Source of the DNA: Amphiscolops sp. MND2022
Lineage: Eukaryota
DNA: 64,000 bases
Assembly: GCA_964187785.1 (NCBI GenBank)
Contig: OZ076414.1
Coordinates: 30,690,001 to 30,754,000, forward strand
Reading direction: 5' to 3'
Numbering within the stretch: position 1 is the stretch's first letter; each line of letters starts with the position of its first letter. Shown here piece by piece: positions 24,344 through 51,493 of this stretch. The notes beneath the pieces are model-generated. The model was not told where the DNA came from, made no database searches, and saw only the letters and a list, made by a program, of their open reading frames with translations. The translations under genes were made by a program, and so were the position numbers.

Positions 24344-24483
24344 TAGCTAAAAAGCTTGCTTGTCGGGGAAAATTCAAGATTTTTTCTGCGATGAAAATGC
24401 TTGGATAAATCGAGAAGTATCAATTTTTTTCCGTTTTTGTGCACTTTTTGTTGATTTTGGAATGTTTTCGTGGATATGACTAT

Positions 24484-24653
24484 AGTAGTATACGAATTCC
24501 CGATTCGGGGCAGTCAAATATATATTTTTTAAAAAATGTTGATTCTTTTTTTAAAAAAAAATCAACGTTTTTTTCACAACTAACTGTTAAAAAATAACCA
24601 AAGCAAACCATCTAAAAATTAGTTATTTTTCACATCTGAAAAATTAACAAAAT
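24484..24653 (+). repeat. Polinton left TIR
   Basis: Roughly 90% identical to the reverse complement of 39021-39190; contains CCCGATTCGGG and a ~45-bp AT-rich palindrome (24531-24574). Confidence 0.95.
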
Positions 24654-25925
24654 AAAAATCAATGAACAAATTTTTCCAGTGGAAAACTTTGTCATGAAGC
24701 AAAAATTCACTAACCTCGTTGCTGTGGATGGTAATAGAGAAAATTTGTATCGAGAGATTCCTTGTAGCAAAAATTTTTTGGAATGAATTACAGCAACGCT
24801 GGCTTAAAAGTGTAACATGTGCAATTCAATTCATTTTTGCAGTGAAGTGTGCAATGCAGACAAATTGACATTTCACACTCGAGAAACATGAAAGAAACAT
24901 CAAAGCAAATTTGCCAGAATTCGTGCCAGCATGGCAAAAATTTTGGCAAAAATATTTTTGCTGGCCAAAAATTTTGGCAAAAAATTTTCTCAGTGACAAA
25001 CTTTTTGGCAAAAACTTTTATCGCTAACAATTTTTTAGCTCCTTTTTGCAACCATGAAGTTGTTCTAGTTCTTGTGAATTATACCTAATCTTAATACATG
25101 GGAAAAGATAGTTTGCCTAATATCTCAACAGGAAATAGTTTTAGACAAAATTCACAGAAATAAAAGTTGAAGATAATTAAAAGTTACACAAATTTTGTTA
25201 CTGAACGTTTTCTCTAAAATCAACCCACTAATTACCACCTATCAAAACAGGTGTAAAAAATTGGTTTTTCTCATTTTTCTCAAAAGTGGTTGGAGTAAGA
25301 CTAGTAACACTTGTAAATTAGGTCCACTTCCATATACGATCTTTCTGATGGTATACTCAGCTCGTATGTGACCCGAACAGGTGTTGAGATCAGGGTTGAC
25401 CTTGAAACTTGCAAGATCAAAGGAACTGGCTCAACCGTTAGTTTTAGCATAATGACTCATAGGAACAAAAATGTAGGGCGTCAGAAAACAAGTCTCCCCA
25501 CCAAATTTCAGCTCGTTACTGAAAACCCACTGATTACCGCCTACCCCAACAGGTGTGAAAATTGGTTTTTTTTTCATTTTCCTCGAAACTGAGTTATCCT
25601 ACAATACCGACGCAGGAAATCAAAGTTATAGACAATAACAAGACAAACTTTTTTTCTGGAAGAAAGTTTTCTGTATCTTGGACCCACTGATTACCAGGTG
25701 AGAAAACAGGTGTGAAAATTGGGTTTTTCTCATTTTACTCGAGACTGGTTGGTCCTACCGTGAAAAGTCAGTAACTAAAATTGGAGACATCCAAAATATG
25801 AACAACTTTTGTTACTAACAAATTTTTTCATCTTGAACCCACAGGTGAGAAAAATAAAAAAAATTCCATTTTTTTAAAAAAAGACATATTGAAAAATTTT
25901 AATTAAACTATTTTTTCTTTAATAA

Positions 25926-28900
25926 ATGGAAATGGAGAATTGTAGTATCTGTAATTCTGAATATAAAAAAGCTTTCAAGTCTGATCATCTGAAATCAGTA
26001 AAACATCTTAAAAAATTAGATCAATATTATTGTAAAAAATGTAATATATATGCCTATCTCAGATAAAATTTCTCATTTAAGTTCAGATGAACATAAAAAT
26101 AAAACCCAACAACGACGTGTTTGGTGTGAAGATTGTAGTAAATATATATCTGATACAACAAAACATTTCCAAAGTGAAATTCATTTACAAAACCGTCAAC
26201 GGGAAAACATGCAAAATTTCAGTAATGGAGTAGAAATAATTATGAATGAAAATACATACATTAAACTTAAAATAAATCCAACTAGTAATCTCGAAGATCA
26301 TATAAATGAATTACTTAGTAAAAATTATTTTCCCCGATATAAATATCAATTGAGTTATCTAGCTAAATTTTCAAAAATAGTTAATGGAGAAGAAGAAGTA
26401 TTTAAAAGATGGACAAAATCAGATCTAACGTATAACAACACACAACAAGATATTCATAACACATTAATGCAGAAATTAGATGATGAACAATTAGAAGGAT
26501 CAGGTTTTGTGTTTCAAGAAATAGAAGAAGTTATTTTAGAAATATATAAAGTTAATGATATTCAAGCTTCATCATATATTGAATTACCAGGAAAATATAA
26601 GGATAATAAATCAATCATAAATATAAAGAATAATGATCAATATTGTTTTTTATGGTGTATTTTAGCCCAGTTATATCCAGTTGAGAATCATAAAGATAGA
26701 ATATCAAAATATATTATTCATTTAAATAAACTCAACCTGAAAGGATTAGAGTTCCCTATGAAAGTTAAAGATATTACCAAGTTCGAAAACCTAAATAATT
26801 TAAACATAAATGTATTTGAAATCACTGGAAATGTTTTAACACCAATCCACGTTAACAAAAATTACTTACAACCACAAATAGATTTATTATTGTATGAAAA
26901 TCACTATTGTCTAATAACAAAGTTGCATTGTTTAATAAATAAAGATTCACACGTGAAACATGTATGTAGAAGATGTTTAACAGCATTTAGTTCACAACCA
27001 GTTCTAATTGATCATATGGAAAGATGTATAAAACAACAACCAACTAAAATCACATTCAGTTGGAAGGATCAGTTAAAGTTCGAAGATTATCATATGAAAG
27101 TCCCTGTACCAATAAGAGTATATGCAGATTTTGAATGTATTAATCAACCTCAAAATACCCCCAACGTGCTATTCAAACAAATTCCAATTGCAGTAGGATA
27201 TTATGTAATTTCACCATTCGGAAATTATTACTATTCATACTTTGGAATAGATTGTACCAAGTGGTTTGTAAATAGAATGTTAACTTTAGAAAAAATTGCA
27301 TCAAAATCTTTTAAAACAAATTTAGAATTAGAAATGAGTCAAGAAGAAGAAGTACATTTTGAACAAGCAGAAGAGTGTTGGCTTTGTGAAAATCCACTCG
27401 GTGGTGAAAAAGTTAGAGATCATGATCATCTAACAGGAAAATACAGAGGAGCAGCTCATAATATATGTAACATAAATTGTAAACAAAGGTCATCAAGTTT
27501 TCTTCCTATATTTTTCCACAACTTTTCTGGGTATGATTGCCATCTTATATTTGAAGAACTTTTAACCGAAGCATACAATCAAAATTATAATCCAACGATA
27601 ATTCCAAAATCACTGAAAAATTATGTTAGTGTACAAGTAGGTTGTTTGAGATTCTTAGATTCATACCGATTTCTTTCTTCCAGTTTAGATAAATTAGTTA
27701 AGAGTTTAGACAATTTTCCTATCATGAAATTGGAAGGAATGAGTGTTGATTTATTCAAAAAGAAATTAGCTTATCCATATGAATACTTAAATCTTGATAA
27801 CTTTCAGGAACCATTAAAATTAACTAAAGAAGATTATTGGTCAACATTAACACAATCTTATCCATCATATGATGATATAAAAAGAACCCAAGAATTAATT
27901 GATAAAAACAAAATTAAAAATGGAAGAGAATTAACAATGTTATATTTGAAAATGGACGTTCTACAATTAGCTGATGTAATATATGTAACATAAATTGTAA
28001 ACAAAGGTCATCAAGTTTTCTTCCTATATTTTTCCACAACTTTTCTGGGTATGATTGCCATCTTATATTTGAAGAACTTTTAACCGAAGCATACAATCAA
28101 AATTATAATCCAACGATAATTCCAAAATCACTGGAAAATTATGTTAGTGTACAAGTAGGTTGTTTGAGATTCTTAGATTCATACCGATTTCTTTCTTCCA
28201 GTTTAGATCAATTAGTTAAGAGTTTAGACAATTTTCCTATCATGAAATTGGAAGGAATGAGTGATGATTTATTCAAAAAGAAATTAGCTTATCCATATGA
28301 ATACTTAAATCTTGATAACTTTCAGGAACCATTAAAATTAACTAAAGAAGATTATTGGTCAACATTAACACAATCTTATCCATCATATGATGATATAAAA
28401 AGAACCCAAGAATTAATTGATAAAAACAAAATTAAAAATGGAAGAGAATTAACAATGTTATATTTGAAAATGGACGTTCTACAATTAGCTGATGTATTTG
28501 AAAACTTTGTGGAAAGTTCTACACGAGAATATAAAATTAATCCTTTGTACTCTTATAGTCTACCTGGTTATACATGGAAAGCAGGATTGAAGTTGACTAA
28601 TATAAAGTTAGACTTTATAAAAGATACAGCGAAGCTGCCCTCCGGTAAAGAATTATTACTACCACTTGAAAATAATATCCGTGGAGGAATTTCAAGTGTA
28701 ATGGGAGATCGTCACGTGCAATCTGATGAAAATAAACAAATCTTATATATCGATGCAAATAATCTATATGGATGGGCAATGAGTCAATACGTTCCTACTG
28801 GTGAATTCGAAATATTACCTCTTAATCCGTGTAATTACATTCTAGAGCAATTAGTAGAAGATTTAATACAAATACCTGATGATAATGAATATGGATTCTT

Positions 28901-30197
28901 TATAGAATGTGATTTAGAATATCCTGTTGAAATTAAAGAAAAAACAAAAAACTTTCCTTTTTGTCCGTATCAAACAAAAGCAGATCCAAACTTATTCTCA
29001 TGTTATATGAATAATGTGAATCAACCTAATTACAAACCAACCCCAAAACTTATGTGTGATGTAACCAATAAATCGAAATATATGATACATTATAGGATGT
29101 TTAAGTTTTATCTTAACCAAGGGATGAAAGTAACGAAGATACATACAACCTACCGGTTCAAGCAAAGTGCATGGTTAGGTAAATATATCGATCATAATAC
29201 TCAGAAACGCACAGTAGCGAAAACAAACTTTGAAAAGGATCTTTATTAATTAATGAACAATGCTATCTTCGGCAAGACAATGGAAAATGTAAGAGATAGA
29301 ACCAATCTAGAATTCATTGATCATTCTCAAATAGATCAAATAATAAAAAGACAATCCAAGTTAAGTTTCAAAGGAATCATGGATCATTATTCTAAGTTTA
29401 GTGTGTACAAGTTTGATAAAGAAAAAACAGTCTTTGATAAACCAATTTATTTAGGTTTTACAGTTTTAGAACTATCAAAACTATTAATGTATGACTTTTA
29501 TTATAACAAATTACAACCATATTGGAAACAATCCATACAACTACACTACATGGATACTGATAGTTTTATTCTTAGTTTTGATACAAGCCACCAAGAACTA
29601 ATAAACTTTTTACAAGAAAACAAAGATGAATTTGATTTCAGTGAATTAGATAAATCTCATGAATTATATAGTCCTATTAACAAGAAAGTTATAGGAAAAA
29701 TGAAAATTGAAACAAGTCCAGTTTTGGTGTTAGATACATTCACAGCATTGCGATCAAAGTCATATTCTTTTAGTTACAATAGTATCATTCAAAAAGCGAA
29801 ACAAAAAGGAATACAAAAAGCTCCCAAATGTGAACACTACAAAAATTCATTGTTTAATTCAGAAACATCAAGTTCTACAAATATATCAATTAGATCTAAT
29901 TTACACAACCTTACAGTTGAAAAACAAAACAAACTAGCTTTGAATCCTTTTGACGATAAACGAATGTATATAAATCCAATAGAAAGTTTACCATGGGATA
30001 AACACACCCAGAAAGGTGATTGTCCTTGTATATATTGTTTGAAATTAATTGGTTTGTATTATAAAGATTTAACTATAAATGATAACAATACCAAGAAAAC
30101 AGATGAAGAAATATATTGGAGTGTTTGGTATTGGAAACAAGCACTCACCCATCAACAACTTCTGAAGTTGATAAGTGATCGAGCACATGTTTTATAA
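25926..30197 (+). pseudogene. Protein-primed family B DNA polymerase (pPolB), disrupted
   Basis: Three N-terminal CxxC...HxxxxxH zinc fingers; vOTU-like D..CFLW and NHYCL motifs; EndoVII-like CWLC...RDHDH.TG.YRG.AH..CN; exonuclease motifs; YIDANNLYGWAM, [K]LMNNAIFGK, YMDTDS. Lesions: 2-bp loss near 26045, 518-bp tandem duplication, TAA at 29247-29249. Confidence 0.95.
27461..28496 (+). repeat. 518-bp tandem duplication inside pPolB
   Basis: 27461-27978 vs 27979-28496; three substitutions seen (K/E, K/Q, V/D codons); TA microhomology at the junction. Confidence 0.95.
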
Positions 30198-30324
30198 AAA
30201 TAAATATATCATTTTATAAATTTATTTATAATTATTATCATTTTATAAAAATAAATATATTGTTTTATAAATTTTTTTATCATATCAGCAAAGCTGTATT
30301 ATTATATATTTAAATTATATTTGT

Positions 30325-31554
30325 TCATAATAAATCAAAATGCCTTTGTCCATCACTACTGATACTTATCAGCTTGGGTGTTAGGACTAGGGCATAAGCT
30401 ATATAGTCTGCTACATCAATGGCAGCATTAAATTTAAATTCTAATCTAATAGGTTGACTCGCAATATTATCTTTTTGTTTGGATAAGTCAAATACATAAA
30501 AATTATAATTTGTTCTGAATTTATGCAAATCAATAAATGGATTGAGTAAGTTAGTTTCACTTTTTAACAAATAGAAGTTTTCAATTTCACACTATGCTTG
30601 ATCATATTTATCTCTATCATAATCACATTCTATTACATCATCTGGATATTTTTCTGATCCTATTTTACAAACTGCATTTGAAACAGGTAAACGATCAAAT
30701 ATTGCATTATCATGTGTTTGTGAATCAATTTTATTTCTAGCTTGAAAGCCAACAATTACAAAAGTTGGTGTTGATTCGCCACTATTACCTAATTCAAATG
30801 TCCAATTATTATTCGTGTTAACATCTTTTCTAAATACAATCCGTTCCATGTAATATATTTCAGTTGGATCTTTGTCTAATATTTGATCCATCACGAGATG
30901 TTGGTTTTCCATTGATGGTATGTAGTGTGGAATGTACCAGGAGATGTCTTTTATATTTATTTTTGCAGCATCCACACCATTGTCTCTGATAATAGGATCA
31001 TTATTATTATTACGTTTTAACGTGAGACTGTAACCCAATCCATAAGTTATTTTTTCTTGATCAGCAAATCCAAACAAGTCTTTCAGTTTTATTCCAACAA
31101 AAAAGGTTCCTTTTTCTGTTTTATTGTTTGTTAGTTCTTGTCTTCTAGTTGCTTGTGATTCTTCAAATCCGTACATCAATTGACTTGTTTGTTGATTGGA
31201 TGTTAAAAGTTTATACATCAATGTAATTGGGTGTAGATTATCAACTTTTTCTAAATGCTTGCCCGAACTAGTAGTTAACTTAGCTTCACTAAATAAAGCA
31301 ACGGGTCCAAAATTAACTAAACTTATTTGATCACCATCTGCATATCTTGTATCATCATTTTTAAGAACTTCAAATTCTAATGATATGTATGAGTTTTGTA
31401 AACAAATATATGCATCTTCTCTTGGGAAGATGATGGAAATATTTGAATTATTATTGTTGATTGTAGCTAAACTACTAGGTGAGTATTTAATAAAATCAAT
31501 TTTATGAATAGGTTTATCCATAGCATATTTATTTTTCAATGAGAATAATTCCAT
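30325..31554 (-). pseudogene. Polinton major capsid protein (double jelly-roll, PY/hexon) with one in-frame stop
   Basis: SYISLEFEV...YADGDQISLVN...LFSE and FDLSKQ...LEFKF...YALV...SSDG patterns resemble Polinton MCP; ORFs 31554-30592 and 30570-30325 are in frame across TAG at 30594-30592. Confidence 0.85.
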
Positions 31555-31622
31555 TTATAAAAGAATAAGTATTCATGATGATGATTTAAAATTTATATTT
31601 ATATTATTTTTACTAAATAAAT

Positions 31623-32143
31623 TTATTCTAAAAAAGTAAACTCAGAATTTAGTTTAGTTTTATTGTTTTTATACACATCGTAAGTTTGTTTTAATTTGTT
31701 GTATTCATTCAGATCAATTTTATTGTCTTCTAAACATTTTGAATGTAGTTTTTGGTAGTCATGTAGTGTTCTAACAGCAAGAGTATTTTTTTAATATTGT
31801 GTTGTTCTTTTCTTTTCAGGTACTCTCCAGCAATTTTACTGATTATACATAAACCTGCACCTATACCACTTGCTTTAGGTACAACAACAAGTCCAACTCC
31901 TGTGACACTCAACGTGACACATGTTGATGATACTGCTAGTACTGAAACTCCATCAATAGATTGAATCAAACAATTTATAAGCTTGTATTGTTTACTTTTC
32001 TTTTTATATTTTTTAGCTTCATGATTATAAAAATTTTGAATATCTTTTATATTTTGAATTGAATTATTGAAACTATTTATTTCTTTCAATCGCATATCAA
32101 GATTATCTGATTCACGTAAACAAGGATACAATTTGGCACTCAT
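31623..32143 (-). pseudogene. Small Polinton protein with central hydrophobic Gly-rich segment, frameshifted
   Basis: MSAKLYP...coiled region...LSVTGVGLVVVP..SGIGAGLC; after a -1 shift near 31790 continues TLAVRTLHDYQKLHSKCLEDNKIDLNEY...*. Confidence 0.6.
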
Positions 32144-32167
32144 TTAATTTTAAATAAAAACTTAATT

Positions 32168-32878
32168 TTAGTTTTCAAAAAGTATGAAATTTATCTCAGT
32201 ATCGGTTAGTTTCATTCTATATTTAAGGTCAACTATATCTTTGTATTCATCTTTCTTTAAGCACTTCACGATATCTTCTCGCGTTGAATAGTCTAAATCA
32301 GATAAATAATACACACCATCTGATGTCTTTATTTCTGTTCCGTATTTTTCCAACAAGTATTCATCACTAAAATATAAGTACTCATTAAAGATTTGGTCTT
32401 TTTTTTCAAATGAGTCAAACAATCCTTTGTTGTATAGTAATTGAATAGTATCTTTGACTGCTTGATTTTTACATTTTTCCAAATCTGAAATAAGGTTTCT
32501 CTCAAAATGATTACGTAAAATGGTTTGTTGTTCTTCCACTAACTTGGCAGCATCCAAAATTATTTCTTTTTTCTTTTCTAAAAATTTATTTTTAATATCT
32601 TGTTCTAAATACTTTAAATTTATTTTTATATCTTCTATACTCTTGTTAATGTCTAAGAAAAACTTTGCATTGACTACGATTTGTGTTTCACCGTTGTCAA
32701 ATATAATTTCTTGTAGGTTACCGAAGGTGCTTTGCATATCAAAATTTTCTAAAGTATTAGACAAATCATTAAGTTTCAAGTTAATTAATTTGGTTTGTGA
32801 TTCCAATTCTTTTTCTAAATTCTCAATCTTGTCTTTTTGTAAGCTTTCGGCACTATAACCAAATTTATGAATTGACAT
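32168..32878 (-). CDS. Polinton hypothetical coiled-coil protein, 236 aa
   Basis: Intact ATG-to-stop ORF between the integrase and the hydrophobic ORF; no catalytic motif recognised. Confidence 0.7.
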   Translation of the reverse strand: MSIHKFGYSAESLQKDKIENLEKELESQTKLINLKLNDLSNTLENFDMQSTFGNLQEIIFDNGETQIVVNAKFFLDINKSIEDIKINLKYLEQDIKNKFLEKKKEIILDAAKLVEEQQTILRNHFERNLISDLEKCKNQAVKDTIQLLYNKGLFDSFEKKDQIFNEYLYFSDEYLLEKYGTEIKTSDGVYYLSDLDYSTREDIVKCLKKDEYKDIVDLKYRMKLTDTEINFILFEN

Positions 32879-32895
32879 TATTTATATAAATATAT

Positions 32896-33768
32896 TTACT
32901 CATTTTGATGGAAAATATTCATACTTTCTAACGTTTTGTTGTTAGATTCAAAGTTGAATATACTTCTTAAAAGTTCTTGTTCATAATATTTTCCTTCTAT
33001 TTGTTCGTTGTTTTCATCTACTAAACCATACGTAACTGGATTTGTATTGTTAATTTTATGTATTTTAAAAAGTTCTCTGTTCCAATTTGTTGTATAACCT
33101 TTACTATATAAATTGCGTTTATCAGGAACTCTTACATAGTCTCCCACTTGAAATTTGGGTTGTTTGTTTTTAAAATTATTACGCAGAGCGCCTTCGGTAT
33201 TGTTAGGTATTAGTTTTTGATTAGTTGACATTTCAAAAGGTGTCATCTTAGTAGTTCCATGCACACGATTATTATATTTTTCCATAGCAGTATCTAGATG
33301 ATTCAACCAACAAGCTTCACCTTCAATATACATTGGTTTTTTTATTAGATTTAATAATGTTCTATTGAAGCGTTCAACAAAAACAGCTTTTAAATCTGAA
33401 TTAGTTGAATAAATTTGAATTTCATTTTGTTTAAGAAAATCCAAAAATGTTTTACTATAAAACTCTTTACCTCTATCTGACCAAATTTTAGCAGGTTTTC
33501 TTTTTGCTTTTTCGATAAGACTTTTTAATGCAGTTGTTGTACTTTTTCCTGACTTATCTTTAAGAGGAATGGCCCATGCATACTTAGTATGATTGTCAAT
33601 TATTGTGAAAATGAACTTGTAGTTTTTGTTATATTTTGATAAGCTAGACCTGTCTATCAGATCGATACTCCAACACTCATCTTTATAGTGAGTTTGTATT
33701 TGAATTCTTTGAAACTTCTTGATTACAGGAGAGAATATTTCTTTAACAATTTCTTTCTTTTCATTCAT
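32896..33768 (-). CDS. Polinton retroviral-like (rve) DDE integrase, intact
   Basis: WSIDLID, IWSDRGKEF, VERFNRTL (D,D,E); C-terminal KFQVGDYVRV...EGKYYEQEL; no N-terminal HHCC. Confidence 0.95.
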   Translation of the reverse strand: MNEKKEIVKEIFSPVIKKFQRIQIQTHYKDECWSIDLIDRSSLSKYNKNYKFIFTIIDNHTKYAWAIPLKDKSGKSTTTALKSLIEKAKRKPAKIWSDRGKEFYSKTFLDFLKQNEIQIYSTNSDLKAVFVERFNRTLLNLIKKPMYIEGEACWLNHLDTAMEKYNNRVHGTTKMTPFEMSTNQKLIPNNTEGALRNNFKNKQPKFQVGDYVRVPDKRNLYSKGYTTNWNRELFKIHKINNTNPVTYGLVDENNEQIEGKYYEQELLRSIFNFESNNKTLESMNIFHQNE

Positions 33769-33782
33769 TTATTTCCTGATAA

Positions 33783-34790
33783 ATGAATAAAAAATTATAT
33801 ATAGGTTTATTATGTGTAATTTTTATTATAATTTTGTGGGTGTATTGGTATTATATTAAACCTAATTATTATAAAAAATTATACCAAAAACTAAAACAAT
33901 TCAAGGGATTTAAATATTCGCATTTAACTAACAAAGAAGAAGAACAAGAACTTACTCCACCAAACACAAGTACAAATAGTCACTTTTTGGTGTATGGTAC
34001 TAGTGGATCAGGTAAGACTAGTTTCCTTAAGTATTATTTAGATCAAACTAAAACAAATTTTATAGTATTCGGTAGAGATGAGACTGAGTTTAAAGATAAT
34101 TATATACCTTTGTTACAGTTAGAAAATATTGAAATAGAGAAACTTGCTAATAGAACTATAATTTTAGATGATGCAGGAGCATTCAAACAACTCAGAACTA
34201 AAGTAGAAGACTTATTTCGGTTTGGTAGACACAATAATATACAAGTTATATACCTTGCTCACTATGCAAAGGATGTTCTCCCAATAGTGAGAGAGAATTG
34301 TTTTAAATTATATATCACTATAAATAATCCAGATAGTTTCTTTGAAACCATAATACAAACTTATTCAATTAAAGTATTAAGGTGGAAACAATATCGTAGT
34401 CAGTTAGAATTTGGTGTAATTGAATTTGATACTAGATCACAAAAGTATAAAATACTCAATCAAAAGTACCAACTAATCTACGATACAACTAAACATAAAT
34501 GGAGTCCTGAAGATTATGTAAAATATGAAAGTTATTTCTTTACAGGTGAAGAATATAATAAACTTAAAATATTCCTAGAAGATATGTCAGATCAAACAAT
34601 TGAAATAACACCTTTTAATGTAGCTTATTATTATGTATATTATTGTAAACAAAATAAAATAAAAGTGAATGAATCTAAAATAGACAACTACGTTGAACGC
34701 ATGCAACAACCACTAATTTCAGATCAACTTAAAGAGGAATTTAAGAAAATTATAATTGATCAAGCAATCAGGTTTAGTAAAAGTAATTAA
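33783..34790 (+). CDS. Packaging-type (A32/FtsK-like) ATPase 1 with N-terminal hydrophobic helix, intact
   Basis: Walker A GTSGSGKTS, Walker B IILDD, GRHNNI...YLAH motif; N-terminus IGLLCVIFIIILWVYWYY. Confidence 0.88.
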   Translation: MNKKLYIGLLCVIFIIILWVYWYYIKPNYYKKLYQKLKQFKGFKYSHLTNKEEEQELTPPNTSTNSHFLVYGTSGSGKTSFLKYYLDQTKTNFIVFGRDETEFKDNYIPLLQLENIEIEKLANRTIILDDAGAFKQLRTKVEDLFRFGRHNNIQVIYLAHYAKDVLPIVRENCFKLYITINNPDSFFETIIQTYSIKVLRWKQYRSQLEFGVIEFDTRSQKYKILNQKYQLIYDTTKHKWSPEDYVKYESYFFTGEEYNKLKIFLEDMSDQTIEITPFNVAYYYVYYCKQNKIKVNESKIDNYVERMQQPLISDQLKEEFKKIIIDQAIRFSKSN

Positions 34791-34807
34791 AAAATGGGTC
34801 TGATTTC

Positions 34808-34928
34808 TTAGTAAAAATCACTAAGCAAATTCACTAAGAGCATATATTTTTCACTAAGCAAATAAGGTTACACTTAAAACATCATGCTCTTACTGAATTT
34901 GCTTAGTGATTTAGTGATTTTTTACTAA
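34808..34928. repeat. ~36-bp inverted repeat between the two ATPase genes
   Basis: TTAGTAAAAATCACTAAGCAAATTCACTAAGAGCAT (34808-34843) vs ATGCTCTTACTGAATTTGCTTAGTGAT(TTAGTGAT)TTTTTACTAA (34884-34928). Confidence 0.9.
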
Positions 34929-35007
34929 ATAAACGAAGTGTATAATTTGTGGAAAAAGTAATGAAAAATCTGTCTGCTCCGATTGTGAGAATAAAAAAAA
35001 ATGTAAA

Positions 35008-35886
35008 GTGTGTAATATACTGAAAACAGATTTTTACAAATATAGAAATGGTAAATTGTATAGTACATGTATAGAATGTTTCAATAAAAGAGTAAAATGT
35101 GAATTCTGTAATAAAGAAGTAAATAAAACCTATTTATCAAAACATTTAAAAAGATGTAATATCAATCATGATAATACAAATAATGAAATTATAAATCATA
35201 ATGAAAATCATGATAATAATAATTATACAAATAATATTATTACAAATGATGATACTGATAATAATGATAATATTATGTTCACCGGAGGCCAGCAAAGCTG
35301 TAATCGAACATTGATAGTTGATCCATCATTTTGTGGTAAGACCCATTTGTTATTAAACAAATTACAATTAATTCGTTTAGATAATCCTGAACAAAAGATA
35401 TGTGTCATTACGAGGAGTCCGGAACAATACAATAAAATTGAAATAGAAGATGTTTCAGTGGAAGAAGATTTAGGTGATAAAAGTATTCAAGATTTTCAAA
35501 ATTGTTGTGTTGTATTTGATGATATGTTAGACTCCAATCAGAAATTAATAGATCCATTTTTTACTAGGGGAAGACATAATGATCTGGATGTTTATTATTT
35601 ATCACAGTCATATTTTGATTTACCTAAAAGAACAATTAGAAACAATAGTAATATTATAATTTTATTTCAACAAACATTGAAAGATGTAGAACACATTTAT
35701 AGAGACATAGCAGGTTTTGATATGTCTAATGATGAATTCAAAAGTTTATGCAGAGAAGCATGGCGGGATAATTATAATTATTTATTAATAAATAGGTTAG
35801 AAGATAAAAATGGGAGTAAGTATATGATATGTAATGAATCCAATCTGCAATACCAGATATTTATTCCACAAACTGATCCTTTTTAG
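35008..35886 (+). CDS. Packaging-type ATPase 2 with Cys-rich N-terminus, Walker A degenerate
   Basis: LIVDPSFCGKT (first Gly appears as Asp), VVFDD, GRHNDL..YYLSQSYF...IRNN; in-frame CxxC pairs extend upstream to ~34939 without a clear ATG. Confidence 0.8.
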   Translation: MCNILKTDFYKYRNGKLYSTCIECFNKRVKCEFCNKEVNKTYLSKHLKRCNINHDNTNNEIINHNENHDNNNYTNNIITNDDTDNNDNIMFTGGQQSCNRTLIVDPSFCGKTHLLLNKLQLIRLDNPEQKICVITRSPEQYNKIEIEDVSVEEDLGDKSIQDFQNCCVVFDDMLDSNQKLIDPFFTRGRHNDLDVYYLSQSYFDLPKRTIRNNSNIIILFQQTLKDVEHIYRDIAGFDMSNDEFKSLCREAWRDNYNYLLINRLEDKNGSKYMICNESNLQYQIFIPQTDPF

Positions 35887-36835
35887 TAAAAGTGCTTACT
35901 AGGTTTTGATATTGATTTGTTGTAATACATTGGTTTTGTAAAAGTTTATCTGCAATTGCTATGATTTGTTCACTAAGCATAGGATTATCATTTCCTCCTA
36001 CTTTTTCAAAATAAAGTAGTTTTAATTGATCTACAAGCTCATCAGGATCCGATGGAAGGAAGACATACTGATTAAATCCACTTCCTAATTGGGATAGTTG
36101 ATAAGGAATATGTTGATATATGTATTGATTAATTAAATCTTTAATGAAATAATATCTCTTTGATTTTTTATCTCCATAATTTATATTATATTTCATATCA
36201 TTTAAAAAAGAATAAATTAGATTCACGTTTTGTGGTTGCGTGTCTAGCTGTGCATTAGTTATAAAATATTGAAGATCGGGATCATTTAAATTGTATTTGT
36301 TACCACTACTGAAGAAGGTTAGTGTATTTTTTTTAATTAGTACTTGTTGAGGATTAATAGGGTTAATTATGAATAAATTTGGATTACCTTCACCGCTTTG
36401 CGTAACAGGTTCTAAACTAAATTGACCTTTGTTTTTGTCATTAGGTAAATTAGAAACTGTCTTGATTATAGTAGAATCAACTTGGTTGGAATTCACAAGA
36501 TCTGTAACAAGTTGATTATTACGGTAAGTAATTTCATCATATTCTTTAATCGATTTTTGTAAATTTTTATTCAAAGCGTTACTCGATTCTCGTATTGCTT
36601 GTGTTGTAGTTTGAGTAGAATCACGTAACGCTTGTAATTGTTTTTCAGATTCTAGCTTGGTTTAGTTTTGGCTTTTTTTCTGATTTTCAGTAACTGGTTC
36701 AAAAACTTCTTCCATATCGTAATGAAAGTCTTGCTTCCCTAGTTTCTCTTTTAATCTTTCAGCTTTTATTAAAGATTTTGATTCTTGCAATTTTTTTAAT
36801 TTTTCTAAATCATCTCGATTATGAATTGAATACAT
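35861..36835 (-). pseudogene. Conserved-looking Polinton protein of unknown function, one in-frame stop
   Basis: MYSIHNRDDLEKLKKL...EEVFEPVT...QN*TKL (TAA 36664-36662), in frame with ORF 36574-35861 ending LPSDPDELVDQLKLL...GGNDN...QIIAIADKL, a motif I recognise from Polinton ORFs. Confidence 0.7.
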
Positions 36836-36884
36836 AATTTATTATTCATAAAAAATAATATTTATTTTACAGCAAGGCTGTAAA

Positions 36885-37287
36885 TCAATGAATTTTACCC
36901 AAGTACAGACCTTTTCCTTGATGAACAAATTTTATAATATCAGGAGCAGTTGCGGCTATCATTCGAGGATTTTTACTTGCTGCTGCAGTACCGATATTAG
37001 CTGCGAGTTCTAATGCTCTTCCAGGATTGTTCAAAATTTTCTTTCCGACACTCTTGGCGGCTTTTCCTATACCTCGGAAAAAGTCACCTAATCCTTCTGC
37101 TTGTATAGTTTGGTCTGATACAATTAATGATTTATTTCTTTTGCAAGTTGAACAAGTACCTCTTAATAATTTAACAACTGCTCCAGTTTTTTTTATTTTG
37201 AGTAATATCTCCACGAATATTTGTGGTAGTGGAATAATGTTTTCCACCAACACAATATGATTTATTTTTAAATTTACTAAAGCTCAT
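36885..37287 (-). pseudogene. Small Polinton protein: zinc-ribbon-like N-terminus plus amphipathic helix, +1 frameshift
   Basis: MSFSKFKNKSYCVGGKH..., then after one extra A in the 37187-37194 run ...GTCSTCKRNKS...EGLGDFFRGIGKAAKSVGKKIL. Confidence 0.65.
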
Positions 37288-37344
37288 TTATTAGAAAAAA
37301 AATATTCATTTTTTTTCTAAGCAAACCTTTGGTTTGTATATATA

Positions 37345-38372
37345 TTAAATGTTGATGATTTGAATTGTAAATGTTAATGTCTCGCCGTTGAAATCAACTG
37401 GGTTATGATTGTTATCCTCAAGGAAAAATTGAATACTATCTAACCTTGTTTTGTTTATTTTTTTTATACAAAATAATATTGTGTTCTTTTATAATTTTAT
37501 ATCCGGGAGGAGCACTAAGATTAAATGAAAATAAAATTTGTTCTCGTATACCATTAACAATTGAACCATCTACACAATCACATTTAAGATGAACTTTGTC
37601 TGTAGTTGTTATCATAACTGGTTTTTCTGATATATGAGTTCCTTGTATATAGTGTGTATTTGTGAATCCTAGAAGTTCATTTAATTTTGAATTAAAATAA
37701 ATGGGATTAGAAGTTGTTAAAACTGATTTCATTGATATTGTATCTGCTTCTATGTTGAGTTTAAACTTAGAACTACCACCAGGTAAAGTACAACATTTAA
37801 TAAGTTCTTGCTGGATGGTATTATTTATATCAACTAATTCATATGCTCCTGGTGGTAGTTCTATTTCAATGGAATCAGTTACAGATCCAATTCCAGAAAT
37901 AACAATTGGTTTATCTTTAATATTTTGATTAATTTGATCAATTATTTTCATCAAATAATCATAATCTGTTTTAGTAATAGTCTTAATTTTAGCATTATCA
38001 TTAACTATAAGTTTTTTAATTTTTTCTATATCACCAGAGGTTTTATATAAATACTCAACATTTGTTACTAATTGAGTGTCAACATCATTTTCTTTTAACA
38101 TTTTTTCTGTATAAAGAAGTTTAAATTTATTGTTCTTCTCAGTAATGTTATAAACTGTATTATATACTTCTAAACTTGTTACTCCCATCATCCATTGTTC
38201 AGGCAATTCCAAAGGAATATCAAATGAAAAATATTCTTTTTGTTTATTCATTTTAAATTCTAGAGTTTCCTGAGGTTTGGATAAAGTATATTCAACAATA
38301 TCCAAATTAGATTTTGCAATACTCAACAAGAGATTCTTGTTTATTATAAGTTACAAAATTTGATAGATCCAT
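37345..38372 (-). pseudogene. Polinton minor capsid protein (penton/PX), two frameshifts
   Basis: FSFDIPLEL...SLEVYNTVYNI..KNNKF...PGAYE...LLGF...CDCVDGSIVNG....FSF....PPGYKI; C-terminus restored as LDSIQFFLED...VDFNGETLTF by removing one A near 37460; ATG at 38372 shifts near 38330. Confidence 0.82.
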
Positions 38373-38375
38373 TTA

Positions 38376-38558
38376 TTAAGAGAAAAATTGTTTATATCCA
38401 CTTGCGGATATCTTATTTATGAATTCTTGGTTTTGTTTTGATAATTTTTTTTGATTATTACCGAAGGAGCTTTGCTTATGAATATTATTGTTATCATTTT
38501 CATTCTCTGGCTTTTGAATAACTTTAAATTGAGCTGAATAATTATTAATTTTCTTCAT
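38376..38558 (-). CDS. Polinton small hypothetical protein, 60 aa
   Basis: ATG in TAAATG context; stop followed directly by TAA-ATG of the penton. Confidence 0.5.
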   Translation of the reverse strand: MKKINNYSAQFKVIQKPENENDNNNIHKQSSFGNNQKKLSKQNQEFINKISASGYKQFFS

Positions 38559-38599
38559 TTAAGAAGAAAAAATTTGTTGAATTTTTTTTCTAAGCTTGC

Positions 38600-39000
38600 T
38601 TAATTAAGTTTAAAAGTTTGATAGTATAAATTTAAAACTGCATTTTTGAAGCCTATAATTTGTGTAAGATATAACACATACAATAAGCTGCACAATAACT
38701 GTCGTCTTTCTGGATTTGATATTCTGAATAGATACCATTATTAATTTGTTTTGTTATATTTAGTGGTGGTGGACAGTCATATGAATCAAAATAAAACTCG
38801 TTAACAAACATAACCCAATGTGTTCCTTTAGTTGGATGTAAGTTAACTATACCACTGGTGGTTATAAATTTATCATCTCTCATATATATTCCACAAGATG
38901 TGTTCATGAGTTTTAAGATTTCTTTTATTTCTACATTGGAAGTTGCTTCATTTTTTAATCCATATTTATTAACAAATTCTTTGAATGATAAATAATTCAT
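38600..39000 (-). pseudogene. Adenain-like cysteine protease (PRO), frameshift just after the catalytic Cys
   Basis: GTHW (His), YFDSY (Asp), IQ....YCAAYC (Gln/Cys); the alternative frame continues VLYLTQIIGFKNAVLNLYYQ...*. Confidence 0.88.
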
Positions 39001-39020
39001 TTAATAGTTGTTTTTCATCA

Positions 39021-39190
39021 ATTTTGCTAATTTTTCAGTTGCGAAAAAAGGCTGATTTTTAGATGGTTTGCCTTGGTTATTTTTTAACAGTTAGTTGTGA
39101 AAAAAACGTTGATTTTTTTTAAAAAAAATAATCAACATTTTTTTAAAAAAAAATATTTGATTGGCCCGAATCGGGAATTCGTATACTACT
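39021..39190 (-). repeat. Polinton right TIR
   Basis: Reverse complement of the left TIR; ends ...GAATTCGTATACTACT followed by the TSD. Confidence 0.95.
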
Positions 39191-40230
39191 GACTATCGAT
39201 AGAGTGAACAAATGGCCCTGCATTAACATACTCTTTACAGATAAATATATATTTTTTCAAACACGTATGAAATGAACAAAATTTTGTCAATATTTTTGAC
39301 CATTTCGATGGTTTCGAAAATTTTCCGCAAGTTAGTAGTTTATTGGCTACGGTCGAGACTTGAAATGTGTCTTAGCTGAAATATTTCCGGTCGCAAAATA
39401 TCCCACTGCTTAGCAGGCGTCTTATTTTCTAAACAGAAAACAAAAAAGCTGATCTGGAGAAAGGAATGAGAATAAATTTTAGCAATAATATAGCTAGGTT
39501 TTTATAATTTGAAGCTCTTAGTGGCATTTCCCAAGAAAATGGGAACGGCGCAAGTCGGCGCACCGCTCAAGATTCAAAAGAGCAAAGCAGGGACACAACG
39601 CTGGAAAAGTAGAATCATCAAAAACCAAATTTTTAAAACAAACAAGTAGACACACAAAAAAACTAGTCACTGTAATAGCCGGGCTTTTTTCCTTAATGGA
39701 AAAAGCGTCGACTAAAATGATTCAAATATATTCACACTAGATTTTTAAAAATGATTCAAGCTAGCTTCAGTATTTACCCTTGCTGAACTTACCTGAACGT
39801 TTTACATGTCCTTCAAAGTTGCCAGCAACTTTTATAATTTTCTAAAAGTTTTCACGGAAATTTCCATGCGAAAATGTTCTCCTGTTGTAATCCACTACTT
39901 TTATCAAGCTGCCTAAAAACTTCATGCACCGTTTCGACGGTACTCAACAGTTTTGGTATCTATACAACGTTCCACCACTATGTGCCTGTCGGTAATTGCT
40001 TCATCACTCGGAAAAACGATGACTAGCCTGAGGACATCGCAGAACCTTGTCAAATCAGTTTTTTCCTTGAGATTGACCTCCATAAACTCTAGTGAAAATT
40101 TATGTTTTAGGGTAGTTTCCAGTAAAGTAACTCCCTGTACTTTAAGAGAAGCAATACTTTATTGTATAGACCATATGGTGACTGAGCGGATCTCAGACTT
40201 CAAGCTCTATAATTCAACCAGTACATTATT

Positions 40231-43200
40231 TGTAAATATGTAAGATAAAATGTACAACTTGTTGATAAAGTTAACGTCACTCATATGTTGTTTTTAATTT
40301 AGTATTTTGTTCTTCGCTTCTTTGATTGAGCCCTGTCACACTCCTCCTTCGTTTCTTGACGTTCAGTCATGAAAAAATTGAACATAAATAATTTGGCTCT
40401 GTAAGTTTCTGCTGCTTCTAAGTTTTTCTATTTTCTTTAGCTGCTTCTTGTGGCTACTTTTTAGTTTTCATCTGTTGATGAACTGATAGTGATGATTTCG
40501 GGGGGTTGTTTTCCTTGTTCAACTCCACAGATCATAACCGGGTTTCCAAAGTAATTTGGGGTCTTTCGTTCTCTTCTTGGTCGGTCGCTCGCTTGTTGAC
40601 TTGACGTTTCTTCTTCTGATTTCGGCTCTTCTTTTGGCTGTTTTTCCCAGTTTGTTGTGGCTTTTATTGGTGCCTTTTGTCGCCTCCTTTCCTCCTCTTC
40701 GTCAGTTGAGTCTGTTTCTAGTAGTTGTTGCCAGTTTTGTAGTCTGTGGAACTCTTTTGGGAGTTTGGATTTTTTCTTCTTTTCGTTCACTTTAGCTGGT
40801 TGTGGCTTTTTGTTTGGTGCGGCGTTTTTGATTGGTTCGCTGTCAGTGCTTGATGTTCGTCTTTCTTGTTGTGAGTCTGCCGTTGGTTGGCTTGTTGTAG
40901 CTTCTTGGTTTGGTGCTGTTCGCGCATCATTTGTAATTGCCATCGCTACGTCTCGCTTGCTGTATATAGTTGGTCGCCGTTTTGTGCCGCTCACTGTGAT
41001 TGTGTGATCTGTTTCTTTTGTGATCACCCCTTTTTACTTCTTGTAGAGTCCGTCCAGCTTCGTACCTCTTGCACGTTCTCTCACCACTATTTCCGAGTCT
41101 TGTTCCCCCGGAAAGTCTGACAGTTCCAATTGGAAGTTGTTGTCGTTTTCTGAAACATTCAAGTTATTTCTTGGATTTGTAGTAATAATATCTTTTACAG
41201 TCGTGAATTTCCGATTGTTATGTAGTTCTGCGGCGCAAAGTTTATTTTGTCGTTTCGCACCCCTTAGTGCGTAGAGCATTTCTGATAATCCTGTGTTATC
41301 TTTTTCTAGTATTATTTTCTTGTTTGCTCGTAGTCGATCGTTTATTGTCCTTATTAGTCTTTCGACCTTTCCATTACCTTTGTGGTCATTTACTGGGCAG
41401 GTAATATGTTTTATGAAATATTTTTCGCAAAATTCTTTAAATTTGTCGCTGGTAAAAGCTTTGCCGGGGTCTGTCCTTATTTGTTTTGGAATTCCGTTAT
41501 CTGCTATATATCTTTGTAAAAATTCGTTAACTTTTCGTGTTGTCGGTGCTCTTAGAAACTTTGCATCTTGAAACCCGGTTTTACTGTCAATCGATACGAT
41601 TAAGTATCTTTTTGAGCTTGCTGCTATTTTGAACGGTCCTGCGAAGTCGATTGCAATTTTGTCGTTAGTTTCTTCCGGCGTTGGTATTTTTCCAAAATTA
41701 TTTTGTTTTAATATTGGTTTTATCGACTTACCGGCTTCTTGGCAGTTTGGGCAGCTTTTGGCTAAAAGTGTGATGTCACGGTGAATGCGTGGTCACCAGA
41801 TGTCGCTGATCTGTTGGAGCATCGCGTCTCTGCCGGGATGTCCCCAGTGTAAAGAATTTTTGATTGGTGCTTGCAGTAATTTTGGGATTACGAGCCGGTC
41901 GTCAAGATATTGTAAGTCATTTTCGTCTAACGATAATGCTTGAAATCTTTCACGCCATGGGCAGTCTAAAGCCTTTATTTAGCCTTTTGTTGAATTTTTT
42001 ACGATTCCGATAATTTTCTGTAAAAACTCGTCGTCTAGGTAATTTGCGGCTAGTAAATTTTGTCCAATTTGATTGGCGAATTTTAGTTTGGGTTGTAATT
42101 TGCTTGAGACTTGATAAATTTCAATACCTGGTAAATTTTCTGCTGATTGGGCTTGTCCCATTTTGTTGGCGGCGTTTGAATTATCGTATTTCGTGCTTTC
42201 ACGTGCGTTTGTTTGTTTGCCTTGTATTGGCCAATGTGCACTCTTACTTCGTTCGTAACTTCTTTTCAGCTTTAGCAATCTCCGCCCTCTGATTGGTTCG
42301 TTTAATTCAATCACTAAAATGGCATTCAAGTTGTTTACGTGATTCACTGTGAACCATATATTGCAAAGTTCAGTTGCTTTTACGCTTTCTCCTTCAATTG
42401 GTGATGGGTGGCGTGAGAGGTAGTCGGCAATTCTCATCGTTCTACCTGGTGCATGGGCTATTTCAAATTCAAATGGGAGTAGGCGATCCACCCATCGTGT
42501 TAGTCGGCTCGAGTATGTTTTATTATTTTTGTTTCCTTCAAGTATTGACGCCAGTGCTTTGTGGTCTGAATTTATTTGGAATTTTGTTCCGTATAAATAA
42601 TTTTTGAAATGTTGTATCGCCCATACAATGGCGAGTAATTCTAGTTCGTTTATAGAATATTTACTTTCTAACGGCGTTAAAAATCTTGATGCGAAATGTA
42701 TTGGTCTCCAGTTGTTTTCGTTATTTTCGTCTGTTTGTTGTAGTACAGCGCCTAATCCGGCTTTACTTGCATCGCAAATGATTCTGATTGGGCTGCTTCT
42801 TTTGAAGTGTCCTACTTCTGCGACTTGTCTTACTTTTTCATTTATTAGTTCAAATGCTTTGTCGTGTTTTTCGCCCCAATTCCAGGGTTGATCCTTTTTT
42901 AGTAGTGGACGTAGTTCGTGGCAAAGTTGCGCCAAGTTTGGTATGAACCGATTTAGTTGGTTCACTGCTCCTAGGTATGATCGGAGTTCTTCTAAACTTT
43001 TCGGTGTCAGTTTTTTCCGTTATGGCTTGAACTTTGGAGTTTATTGGTTTTATTCCTGTTTGAGATAATTTATACCCCAACCAGTTGATCTCTTCTGCCG
43101 CAAATTTACATTTTTCCCATTTTAGTCTGATATTAGCGTTATCTAGCTTTTTCAGAACTTGTTTTACTGTTTCGAAGTGTTTTTCCTTTGAGCCCCGTGT

Positions 43201-45150
43201 TACGATTAATATATCATCTAGAAACACGTATGTGTTTGGGATGTTTCCCAACTCTTGGTCCATGGCCCTTTGGAATTCTGTGGGCATTGTAGTGAGCCCA
43301 TAGAATCCTGTTACGAACCTGTATGTGCCGGTGGCTTTCCCACCTATAATTTGAAAATTACAGTGTTTTGATGTTTCTTCATCAAGCGGCACTTGTCCAT
43401 ACGCGTAGCGCATGTCAAGTGATGTGTTAAGTGCCTTTCCGTTTTCTTTGTTGTCTAATTGCTCTGCTACTAAGTCAACTAAATGTTCTAGGTGGGGCAT
43501 TTGGTATTTATCTTTCACAATTTCATTATTCAGTGCACGCGCGTCTAAAGCAATTTTCACACTTTAGTCTTTCTTCACTGTGATTACCACAGGTTGTATA
43601 AATTGCTTATCTGTTACTTCACTGACTCGTTCAATGTGGCCTTCATTTAATAACCTTTCGATTTCGTCTTGTACCGCCTCCTGGAGTTGGATCGGTACCC
43701 TTCTACCTTTTTGTTGTGTTATTTTGGCGTTTTGTTTAAATTCAATTTTTACTTTATGTTTGTTTATTTTGTTGGTCGTTCCAATTTTCTGGTTCATTCG
43801 CTTTGTTTGGTTTATCCAATTTAATTGGTTGTGTAGTTCCGCTTGTTATTTTACAAATAGTTCTTTTACCTTCGTTTTGATTGGGTGAGACGAAATTGTA
43901 GTTGAAGGCGTTCAGCCAGTCCCTTCCAATTAGTGATTTTGCGCCTCTTTCTGCTATCAATATTCTCGCCTTCTGCAGTTTGCTGTCTCCCACTTCCAAT
44001 TTGCAGAACACATAACCCAGTAAGTTCAATTTTCGTTTATTGAAGTCCACGTATTCTTCGTCTTCTGGTAGTTGTCGTATGAATAAAGTTTTTCTTTTCC
44101 TTATTCGTTTAATTTCTTCAATTTCGAATATTGTTACTGGTGACCCTGAGTCAACCATTGTTTTGAAAGGATTGATCCATTTTCAACTCCGTTTATTGTT
44201 AGCACAATTTTATCGTCTTCTATTGCTGATCCCGAACTACTTTCTTCGAAATTCATCTATTCTTTGGATTCTTTGCTATGGCGGTTTTGTGATTTTTCGG
44301 CTTTTTGCAAAACTACCGGCTCCTCTGGTTTGGCAACATTTTGCAAAGTGGCCCTTTTTTCCACATTTCATGCATGTAATGCCCATTGCCTTACACTCCG
44401 TTAGGTGTTGTGGGCTGAATGGAGCTTCACAACGAAAGCACTTTTTTGTCGGTCCCCACCGTTTGGTCTCTGTATTTATTTTATTGATTTCGTTTGGTTC
44501 GTGTTTAATGTTTGGTTTGTCCAGTTTATCGAATGTTTGTTGTCCCAGCGTTCCTTCTTCGTAGGCTATTGCGAATTGAATTGTGTCAGCGATTGATGTT
44601 TTGGGCTCTGTACATAATTTTTGTTGAACTTCTTTATTCATATTCACAATGAATACGTCCTTCACCAAACTTTCAGTTATTGTCCCAAAATTGCACTTCG
44701 CCGCCAGTCTGTTAAGTTCGTTCCAGAACTGCTTTAGCGTTTCGTTTTCGTTTTGTTTTCTGCTCAGGAACTTGAATCTGTCCAGCGTTTCATTTTTTGG
44801 TTTTTCGAAGCAGTCTTTGCATTTTTGTAGTAGTTCGACCAAAATGATTGTAGCGATATTCGTTGTCGGGAATTTATCTGAAATCGTCTTCCTTGCTGCC
44901 ATTCCTGGGGCTAGGTAGAGTACGCTGTTAGCTTTCTTCATTGCTGTTGCCTCTTCCATGTCTCCCATGAGGCTTTTTTCTTTTGTACCTGTAGTTTTGA
45001 TATGTTCTGCTACAGAGATGTTTCTTTTAGCCATAAGGGCTACTTCAAATAGGTCTCTCCACTTTTCCCATTCTAATTCAGGGGTTTTTGTTGCTTCTTG
45101 CCAAAAAAATTGCTCCGTATCTTGCCATCGAAATATCTAATCGATCTTCC
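40231..45150 (-). mobile_element. Degenerate Ty3/Gypsy LTR retrotransposon (element A), 5' LTR not found
   Basis: gag with two Cys/His knuckles, protease DSGS, RT (FLDD), RNase H (CDAS..GLGAVL), integrase (DFAGP, TDPG, KVERLIRT); PPT GAAACGAAGGAGGAG (40355-40341) then TGTGACA; boundaries approximate. Confidence 0.88.
40461..45130 (-). pseudogene. Gypsy A gag-pol, multiply frameshifted
   Basis: ORF fragments 44276-45034, 43754-44158, 43564-43797, 42850-43560, 41979-42965, 41034-41279, 40461-41027 in gag-PR-RT-RH-INT order. Confidence 0.88.
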
Positions 45151-46089: not shown

Positions 46090-46295
46090 TGTTAACGACT
46101 ACGACTCAAGTAAAGAAGAATATGATAGCGACTGTAAATTCGACGGTATTGCATTTTATGGCAATAGATGTTATTTTGCCACTTTGGCATAATTTGGCAG
46201 GTTGTTAATATGTTACGTAATAAAGTATTTCACACTATTGTTTTTCTCACATTAGCTTTAGGTTATGTAATGTTAGTTGTCTAGCACCTACCACA
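46090..46295 (-). repeat. Gypsy B 3' LTR, 206 bp
   Basis: Matches 51280-51493 except three substitutions and one net 8-bp complex indel; preceded on the minus strand by purine tract GAGGGAAG (46303-46296). Confidence 0.95.
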
Positions 46296-46597
46296 CTTCC
46301 CTCGGTATTAATGAAGGTCATGGGGTTTTGTACATTTGTACTTTATTTACGTTTACATTAACATCGTTATGTGATTGGTCCGTCTTTTGGCCAATACTTT
46401 TACAGAATGCTAATTTTTTCATGGTATATAATTGTCAACTAAAAACACAATTAAACAACTGCGAACAAATGTTACTACAACACCAGTTCTTTTAAAACTC
46501 AAACTGCGTGCTGGGTTCATGAATAAATATAACTAGGCCGCACTTTTATCAAGGTTTTCAGCAATGCTCGATGAGTTTTTTTTTTTAGTTTTTGCTT

Positions 46598-51280: not shown

Positions 51281-51493
51281 GTTAACGACTACGATTCTGG
51301 AGTGGAAGTAAAGAAGAATATGATAGCAACTGTAAATTCGACGGTATTGCATTTTATGGCAATAGATGTTATTTTGCCACTTTGGCATAATTTGGCTGGT
51401 TGTTAATATGTTACGTAATAAAGTATTTCACACTATTGTTTTTCTCACAATAGCTTTAGGTTATGTAATGTTAGTTGTCTAGCACCTACCACA
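51280..51493 (-). repeat. Gypsy B 5' LTR, 214 bp
   Basis: TG...CA, adjacent to PBS and TSD. Confidence 0.95.

Follow-up and report, generated by a model that had tools for sequence, protein, structure and literature searches.

Introduction

The late promoters of vaccinia virus are described as carrying the sequence TAAAT, usually followed by G; at the tenth nucleotide upstream, with weaker Ts around it, they have a conserved T that the intermediate promoters of the same virus are reported to lack (PMC11980589). A TAAATA variant has also been named for vaccinia (PMC5294985). The viral RNA polymerase is reported to recognise TAAA directly (PMC12917281) and to slip on it, adding a 5' poly(A) leader (PMC6211774). 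Here, we analyse a signal of this kind at the gene starts of an integrated Polinton/Maverick element, which occupies positions 24484-39190 of a 64,000-nucleotide stretch of the Amphiscolops sp. MND2022 genome (assembly GCA_964187785.1, contig OZ076414.1, positions 30,690,001 to 30,754,000; hereafter the window), and in the relatives of this element. As in the vaccinia late promoter (PMC11980589, PMC5294985), TAAAT here overlaps or just precedes the ATG and is followed by G or A, T peaks at the tenth base upstream with weaker flanking Ts, the spacer is variable and there is no room for a 5' untranslated region. Unlike in vaccinia, the signal lies on an integrated 15-kb element, with no Pfam match to an RNA polymerase among the 49 element open reading frames (ORFs) scanned and with no separate early class seen.

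Promoters matching those of a larger virus are known from mavirus and the endogenous mavirus-like elements (EMALEs) of the protist Cafeteria. The mavirus promoters are reported to match the late motif of Cafeteria roenbergensis virus (CroV), which induces the provirus (10.1101/068312), and EMALE types are described as carrying different promoter motifs (PMC8547959). Our element resembles these in being integrated, in having terminal inverted repeats (TIRs) and one shared motif (theirs matching the late promoter of the large virus), and in that different families within one host carry different motifs (PMC8547959). It differs in its animal host, Polinton-type capsid (PF21738) and pox-type motif, where the Cafeteria elements have a protist host, a TCTA motif, CroV as helper and a shown reactivation.

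In animals, Polinton-like viruses (PLVs) are reported from entomopoxvirus occlusion bodies, and have been proposed as poxvirus parasites (PMC11296320). They share the small Polinton-like genome, but are found in occlusion bodies and have highly divergent capsids, whereas the families described here are high-copy chromosomal insertions; the main text of that report contains no occurrence of promoter, motif, TAAAT or transcription. The gene set of our element is that described for animal Mavericks/Polintons and adintoviruses (PMC8097293, PMC8502044), namely a DNA polymerase B of the protein-primed type (pPolB), an rve integrase, an A32 ATPase and a double-jelly-roll major capsid protein (MCP), together with TIRs, a 6-bp target-site duplication (TSD) and intronless ORFs. 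The examined text of these two sources describes no shared pox-type initiator, and the word promoter is absent from PMC8502044 and from two 2026 preprints; our family A has, in addition, two A32-like ATPases, and shares its host with a family C that is without the signal. Lastly, the linear yeast elements pGKL1/2 have a TAAAN initiator at their gene starts, but an RNA polymerase and a capping enzyme are encoded by these elements themselves, which also use an upstream conserved sequence (UCS) (PMC6211774) and are described as capsidless plasmids (PMC10328495).

The window element is a Polinton/Maverick by its TIRs, TSD, pPolB, rve integrase, double-jelly-roll MCP and A32-like ATPase, and its initiator signal is real, lineage-specific and matches the poxvirus late promoter in two positions. 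We propose, with a probability of about 0.6, that the genes of this family (A) and of a second one (B) start at a poxvirus-late-like signal, likely read by a co-infecting poxvirus-like cytoplasmic DNA virus, and that the element is a virophage-like satellite. Since the sole Pfam match of the MCP in the window element is PF21738, with none to a virophage capsid family, the element may be said to work like a virophage rather than to be one. Virophage-style promoter matching is known from protist virophages, and what is new here is its pox-type version in an animal Polinton; we found no report of TAAAT(G) promoters in a Polinton in a literature search that left supplements and subscription papers outside.

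Results and Discussion

Start signals in the window copy

An earlier note on this DNA had placed TAA directly before the ATG at nine of eleven identifiable starts, and all nine were verified (25926 and 33783 on the plus strand; 31554, 32143, 33768, 37287, 38372, 38558 and 39000 on the minus strand). Its view that this exceeds what AT richness would give holds as well, given that TAA precedes 31/504 ATGs of the element (6.2%; P(>=9 of 11)=6e-10). The two starts it had listed as exceptions, 32878 and 36835, do have no TAA directly at the ATG, but the motif itself is kept one codon 5' of it, as TAAAT-A-ATG and TAAAT-T-ATG. Counted as TAAAT at -12..-3 of the ATG, the signal is present at 11/11 window starts, against a background of 54/504 ATGs (P=2e-11), and T stands at -10 in 10/11 of them. 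The start of ATPase 2 had been called unclear: the window copy indeed has no start codon there, but 21/22 sister-copy matches have a TAA-ATG start. The initiators are the following:

25912..25928, plus strand: pPolB initiator, TAAATG (25923-25928), T-tract at -11..-9
31552..31568, minus strand: MCP initiator, TAAATG, T at -10
32141..32157, minus strand: initiator of ORF 32143, TAAATG, T at -10
32876..32895, minus strand: initiator of ORF 32878, TAAAT-A-ATG, T at -10
33766..33785, both strands: initiators of integrase (33768, minus) and ATPase 1 (33783, plus), back to back, two TAAAT 8 bp apart
36833..36852, minus strand: initiator of ORF 36835, TAAAT-T-ATG, T at -10
37285..37301, minus strand: initiator of ORF 37287, TAAATG, T at -10
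38370..38386, minus strand: putative penton initiator, TAAATG, T at -10
38556..38572, minus strand: initiator of the small ORF 38376-38558, TAAATG, T at -10
38998..39014, minus strand: putative protease initiator, TAAATG, A-rich, without the -10 T

The window copy is decayed, and several of these start codons head short or frameshifted ORFs in it; in 20 sister copies, long ORFs start at the same places. At the back-to-back integrase/ATPase 1 pair of subfamily A1, to which the window element belongs, the complement of each TAAAT provides the T at -10 to -12 of its partner; the spacing is wider in subfamily A2, whose integrase is without the -10 T. The protease start also shows an A-rich TGAAAAA stretch (window 39004-39025) that loosely resembles the poxvirus early core, with TGAAAAA retained in many A1 and A2 copies and GGAAAAA in others.

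Conservation in sister copies and in families A and B

The host is an animal with intron-split genes and a genome of 1.07 Gb, in which 125 MCP matches at 93-100% identity, including the window's own, were scored from 2,790 first-look candidates. The sister-copy set comprises 20 of these 125 copies, all of them plus-strand matches. Among the sister copies the bases immediately 5' of the motif differ and TAAAT is constant; at pPolB, 15/20 matches read TAAATA with the ATG two codons on, so that the conserved unit is TAAAT, not TAAATG. Distant-capsid searches of the genome led to subfamily A2 (MCP about 80% identical) and to family B (37-45% identical to A in the MCP and 36-42% in the integrase), the gene order of which is unlike that of A, with nearly all genes on one strand. 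The further loci used were 10 B copies, 10 A-type copies (one of which turned out to be A1) and 8 end stretches.

The starts of ORFs in subfamilies A1, A2, B1 and B2 were grouped into clusters by a procedure blind to the motif. TAAAT lies at -12..-3 in 59/68 recurring starts (A1 13/16, A2 12/13, B1 17/19, B2 17/20), and 51/68 have the exact TAAATG. The base after TAAAT is G in 51 of the 59, A in 6 and T in 2, and in the variant starts TAAAT is retained with the ATG shifted, mostly as TAAATA. The signal heads replication and virion genes alike, and nearly every gene. The B1 pPolB, which gives no BLAST match to that of A, also starts in TAAATG. On our own reading, the nine motif-less starts are mostly short ORFs in terminal arms or internal fragments, and the B1 zinc-ribbon gene is probably a genuine gene without the motif at its first ATG; one of the 59 TAAAT-bearing starts is an internal pPolB fragment.

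Within family B, the pPolBs match PF03175, the one of B2 being 45% identical to that of A2. B1 (L083:533-3643) and B2 (L088:607-4179) have virion genes in common and unlike pPolBs, of which only that of B2 resembles the polymerase of A, and both start in TAAATG. The family also has several free-standing endonuclease VII/HNH-like genes at varying positions, with TAAAT ahead of each:

L048:1699-2397; L048:6631-7413; L044:6567-7331; L051:7571-8131; L085:4456-4902: family-B endonuclease VII/HNH-like genes

The family-B zinc-ribbon protein (L050:8347-8859) consists of an N-terminal zinc ribbon and two helical repeats. It was considered as a transcription factor and set aside, with Atlas leads below 0.9, homologues only 51-100% identical, a predicted local distance difference test (pLDDT) score of 43 and no match in the PDB.

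The T-tract about ten bases upstream

The -10 position was taken from PMC11980589 and then tested on the 59 initiators, where the peak is visible in the upstream base profile. T stands at -10 in 47/59 TAAAT starts versus 153/443 non-start TAAATs (p=5e-11), the latter taken from four loci, with some of their flanking DNA, and the window element; for A1 and B1 alone the count is 25/30 (p=1.5e-7). The neighbouring positions are also rich in T (43/59 at -11 and 40/59 at -9). Between A1 sister copies, pairwise identity, in an ungapped comparison with the ATG positions conditioned by the filter, reaches 0.97-0.99 at -11..-9 and 0.98/0.94 at the first two bases of the motif, the spacer standing at 0.75-0.91. 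Separately, TTCAA is enriched at about -22 to -16 from TAAAT in family B (8/34 vs 17/443, uncorrected p=1e-4) and also occurs upstream of two genes of the related contig L154, possibly as a second upstream element.

Host genes, family C and relatives elsewhere

Two outcomes that the earlier note had named as refuting, a similar TAAATG rate in host genes and a motif unconserved in related Polintons, were not seen: conservation extends from A1 to B2, as given above, and TAA precedes the ATG in 0/11 distinct host genes, a small sample. The latter comprises tubulins (0/9 found in 30 loci, 8 of them distinct, all with A at -3) and histone genes (0/3). The genome also has large tandem histone arrays with a period of about 3.63 kb (C67, C33, C4 and others).

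A genome search with PF00770 gave 7 places, which constitute a third Polinton family, C (L166-L179), with a GC content of 0.41-0.42, a PF00770-matching protease, an integrase, an A32 ATPase and some starts after TTTCAG. TAAAT occurs at 1/69 of its ORFs (7 loci). Outside this genome, five distant viral contigs were found in IMG/VR with a pPolB alignment, which also gave at least one metagenome contig; after exclusion of a fifth viral element that was a near copy of another, the four AT-rich elements have TAAAT at 4/41 ORFs. Searches of IMG/VR with the window MCP, the C-terminal part of pPolB, an integrase alignment or an MCP alignment gave no relatives. Two related contigs carry the signal: all 3 genes of L154 have TAAAT, and among the first 4 starts of L164 there are 3 with TAAATG or TAAAATG; L165 was excluded as too partial. 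L164 (JBCDHL010000319.1) is a 3-kb contig in a Chlamydiota metagenome-assembled genome, with an integrase 48% identical, and is a piece of this Polinton lineage, probably present as eukaryotic contamination of the Chlamydiota bin. In the integrase tree, C is separated, with moderate support (82/92), from a group of A, B and L164.

The coding strands of A/B contain 2.8 AATAAA per kb (no depletion), those of family C 0.6 and host exons 0.09, which fits transcription outside the nuclear processing system and is partly an effect of AT content. The early terminator of poxviruses, TTTTTNT, is depleted in the A/B coding strands (17 where 33 are expected); this was not counted, because A6 runs are likewise depleted (122 vs 210) and a general avoidance of homopolymers confounds it. 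Trans-splicing was rejected because AG does not precede these starts.

A proposed helper-read promoter and its rivals

The signal, in which a T-tract lies about 10 bases upstream of a TAAAT that overlaps the ATG or closely precedes it, is likely recognised by a co-infecting, pox-like cytoplasmic DNA virus through its RNA polymerase and late factors. By analogy with mavirus, the element would integrate silently by means of its own integrase and would be expressed once a compatible helper infects the cell; vaccinia-type slippage at TAAAT would leave the AUG with an A at -3. The helper could be any large DNA virus, or any linear element of the cytoplasm, that has a polymerase reading TAAA(T). One helper-type promoter motif is shared across the genes of an element in whose scanned ORFs no RNA polymerase was found, and helper dependence of families A and B is, on this analysis, likely. 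The virus-type initiator put forward in the earlier note stands as far as the signal is concerned (it marks genes one by one, has the layout of poxvirus late promoters, is retained in related Polintons and is missing from the sampled host genes and from family C), but no helper was found in the assembly. The wider claim, that the members of one animal Polinton lineage are endogenous virophages of an undiscovered pox-like virus, have the full vaccinia-type late promoter at all their genes, number hundreds to thousands in an animal genome and coexist with host-transcribed Polintons, seems to us as probable as its opposite.

Several results weigh against a helper-read signal. The earlier note had suggested looking in the same species for sequences of nucleocytoplasmic large DNA viruses (NCLDVs): in the assembly there are 0 matches for VLTF3, the NCLDV capsid and D5, the VLTF3 and capsid searches being without a positive control. 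Nor did a viral RNA polymerase turn up there, the Rpb2-type matches being three exon-split loci that we take for host Pol I/II/III. A helper that stays exogenous would not have to appear in an assembly. TAAAT is short and AT-rich, TAAA is reported as common even beyond promoters (PMC12917281), and TAAAT is not depleted within A/B coding sequence. Where the ATG is displaced (8 starts), the T-tract is anchored no better on TAAAT than on the ATG (13/24 each). The 59 starts are not independent, as the subfamilies share ancestry, the host control amounts to 11 distinct genes only, and the AATAAA density in A/B carries the AT-content effect already mentioned. Finally, the copy numbers (2,790 first-look candidates, and for the MCP no fewer than 125 near-identical copies) show that integration is very efficient, as one would more readily imagine of an autonomous element in the nucleus.

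Such an element is the serious remaining rival, although we consider it unlikely: TAAAT and the T-tract would form a compact host RNA polymerase II (Pol II) core promoter, perhaps with an element-encoded factor, the likeness to poxviruses being convergent or inherited. The very high copy number and the absence of helper genes from the matches in the assembly speak for it, and the family-B zinc-ribbon protein, for which Atlas gives weak leads (scores 0.81-0.84) to clusters of VLTF3 and of the TFIIB type, would be a candidate factor, but this lead has the low pLDDT and the lack of a PDB match given above and no family A counterpart was seen. A Pol II promoter also has to accommodate an AATAAA every ~360 nt in A/B coding strands, divergent A1 initiators merely 8 bp apart, and a host-type family C that uses other start contexts in the same genome.

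We think it improbable that the source of the polymerase is a linear element persisting in the cytoplasm, of the kind of the yeast virus-like elements, or a non-pox giant virus, rather than a pox-like virus. The TAAAN initiator with slippage leaders of the pGKL elements (PMC6211774), the TAAAT motif reported in promoters of the ranavirus polymerase (PMC5294985) and the TAAAATG of L164 are in line with such a source, but the T peak exactly at -10 is a vaccinia late feature, no viral-type Rpb2 is present among the matches in the assembly, and plasmids of this type are described as reported solely from yeasts (PMC10328495).

A role in translation, with the in-frame stop before the ATG serving termination-reinitiation on a polycistronic RNA or shielding the start from upstream reading, has a similarly small chance of being right. 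In family B the genes do lie close together, with one strand carrying nearly all of them, and some of the TAA codons are indeed upstream stops, but TAA is the stop of an upstream gene in just 6/76 starts, 13/76 lie inside upstream coding sequence and 14/76 have no same-strand upstream gene within 400 nt. Moreover, the codon is nearly always TAA rather than TGA or TAG, TAAAT is kept when the ATG shifts, even out of frame (TAAAT-ATG), and a spaced T-tract is conserved. Least probable of all, and hardly to be expected, is that the motif is the poly(A) signal of an upstream gene overlapping the next start, or a product of AT richness or ORF calling, since the AATAAA or ATTAAA context of 34/59 initiators and the 72% AT of the element are met by 25/59 with other hexamers (TATAAA, AGTAAA, TTTAAA and others), by the motif on genes with nothing upstream on the same strand, and by a composition-matched background of 6-11% alongside the low count in AT-rich IMG/VR elements (4/41).

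With two families that have a pox-late signal beside a third without it, a simple sequence screen can address how animal Mavericks/Polintons are expressed and whether any of them acts as a virophage-like defence against large DNA viruses. If the signal is helper-read, a relative of the poxviruses should exist in an animal host whose assembly records none, and the context of the start codon would by itself tell helper-dependent animal Mavericks from autonomous ones and point to the family of the helper.

Structure of the element and its surroundings

The GC content of the element is 0.28 (72% AT), versus 0.37-0.39 in the flanks. Its features are the following:

24484..39190: integrated Polinton/Maverick, family A, subfamily A1; 14.7 kb, decayed copy with TIRs, 6-bp TSD and core genes
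24478..24483: left TSD, 6 bp, same letters as 39191-39196
39191..39196: right TSD, 6 bp, same letters as 24478-24483
24484..24653, plus strand: left TIR, 170 nt, 91% complementary to the right arm
39021..39190, minus strand: right TIR; the putative protease initiator lies 18 nt inward of it
25926..30197, plus strand: pPolB, broken, carrying an Endonuclease_7 domain
30325..31554, minus strand: MCP, double jelly roll (PF21738, E=2e-13), internal stop in the window copy
31623-32143, minus strand: gene of ORF 32143, frameshifted in the window copy
32168-32878, minus strand: gene of ORF 32878
32896..33768, minus strand: retroviral-type integrase (PF00665, rve, E=6e-14)
33783..34790, plus strand: ATPase 1, A32-like packaging (PF04665, E=6e-6)
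34926..35886, plus strand: ATPase 2, zinc finger and A32-like, TAAAT upstream, window copy without a start codon
35861-36835, minus strand: gene of ORF 36835, frameshifted in the window copy
36885-37287, minus strand: gene of ORF 37287, frameshifted in the window copy
37436-38372, minus strand: putative penton gene, frameshifted in the window copy
38376-38558, minus strand: small ORF
38653-39000, minus strand: putative cysteine protease

The A2 orthologue of ATPase 2 matches PF04665 with E=1e-4, narrowly missing the cut-off. The penton and protease labels have no Pfam match among the element ORFs scanned, and rest on position and motifs; the product of 38653-39000 is presumably a protease, judging by its His/Cys motifs. 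The window pPolB has an early frameshift, an internal 518-bp tandem duplication and an internal stop, and internal tandem duplications of gene blocks resembling this one are found in copies L001, L003, L067 and L073.

Between the convergent ends of pPolB and MCP (window 30190-30283) lies a 43-nt unit that consists of A and T only, is duplicated and has runs of T on both strands; no stable hairpin was found there (z -0.23). The left arm (window 24654-25920, 1.3 kb) is without conserved long ORFs and contains, besides short motifs that recur, a 137-nt duplication (25157/25616). On the right-hand side of the element, window 40400-51500 holds decayed ORFs resembling those of a long-terminal-repeat retrotransposon (gag-like and reverse-transcriptase-like by eye), with 191-nt direct repeats.

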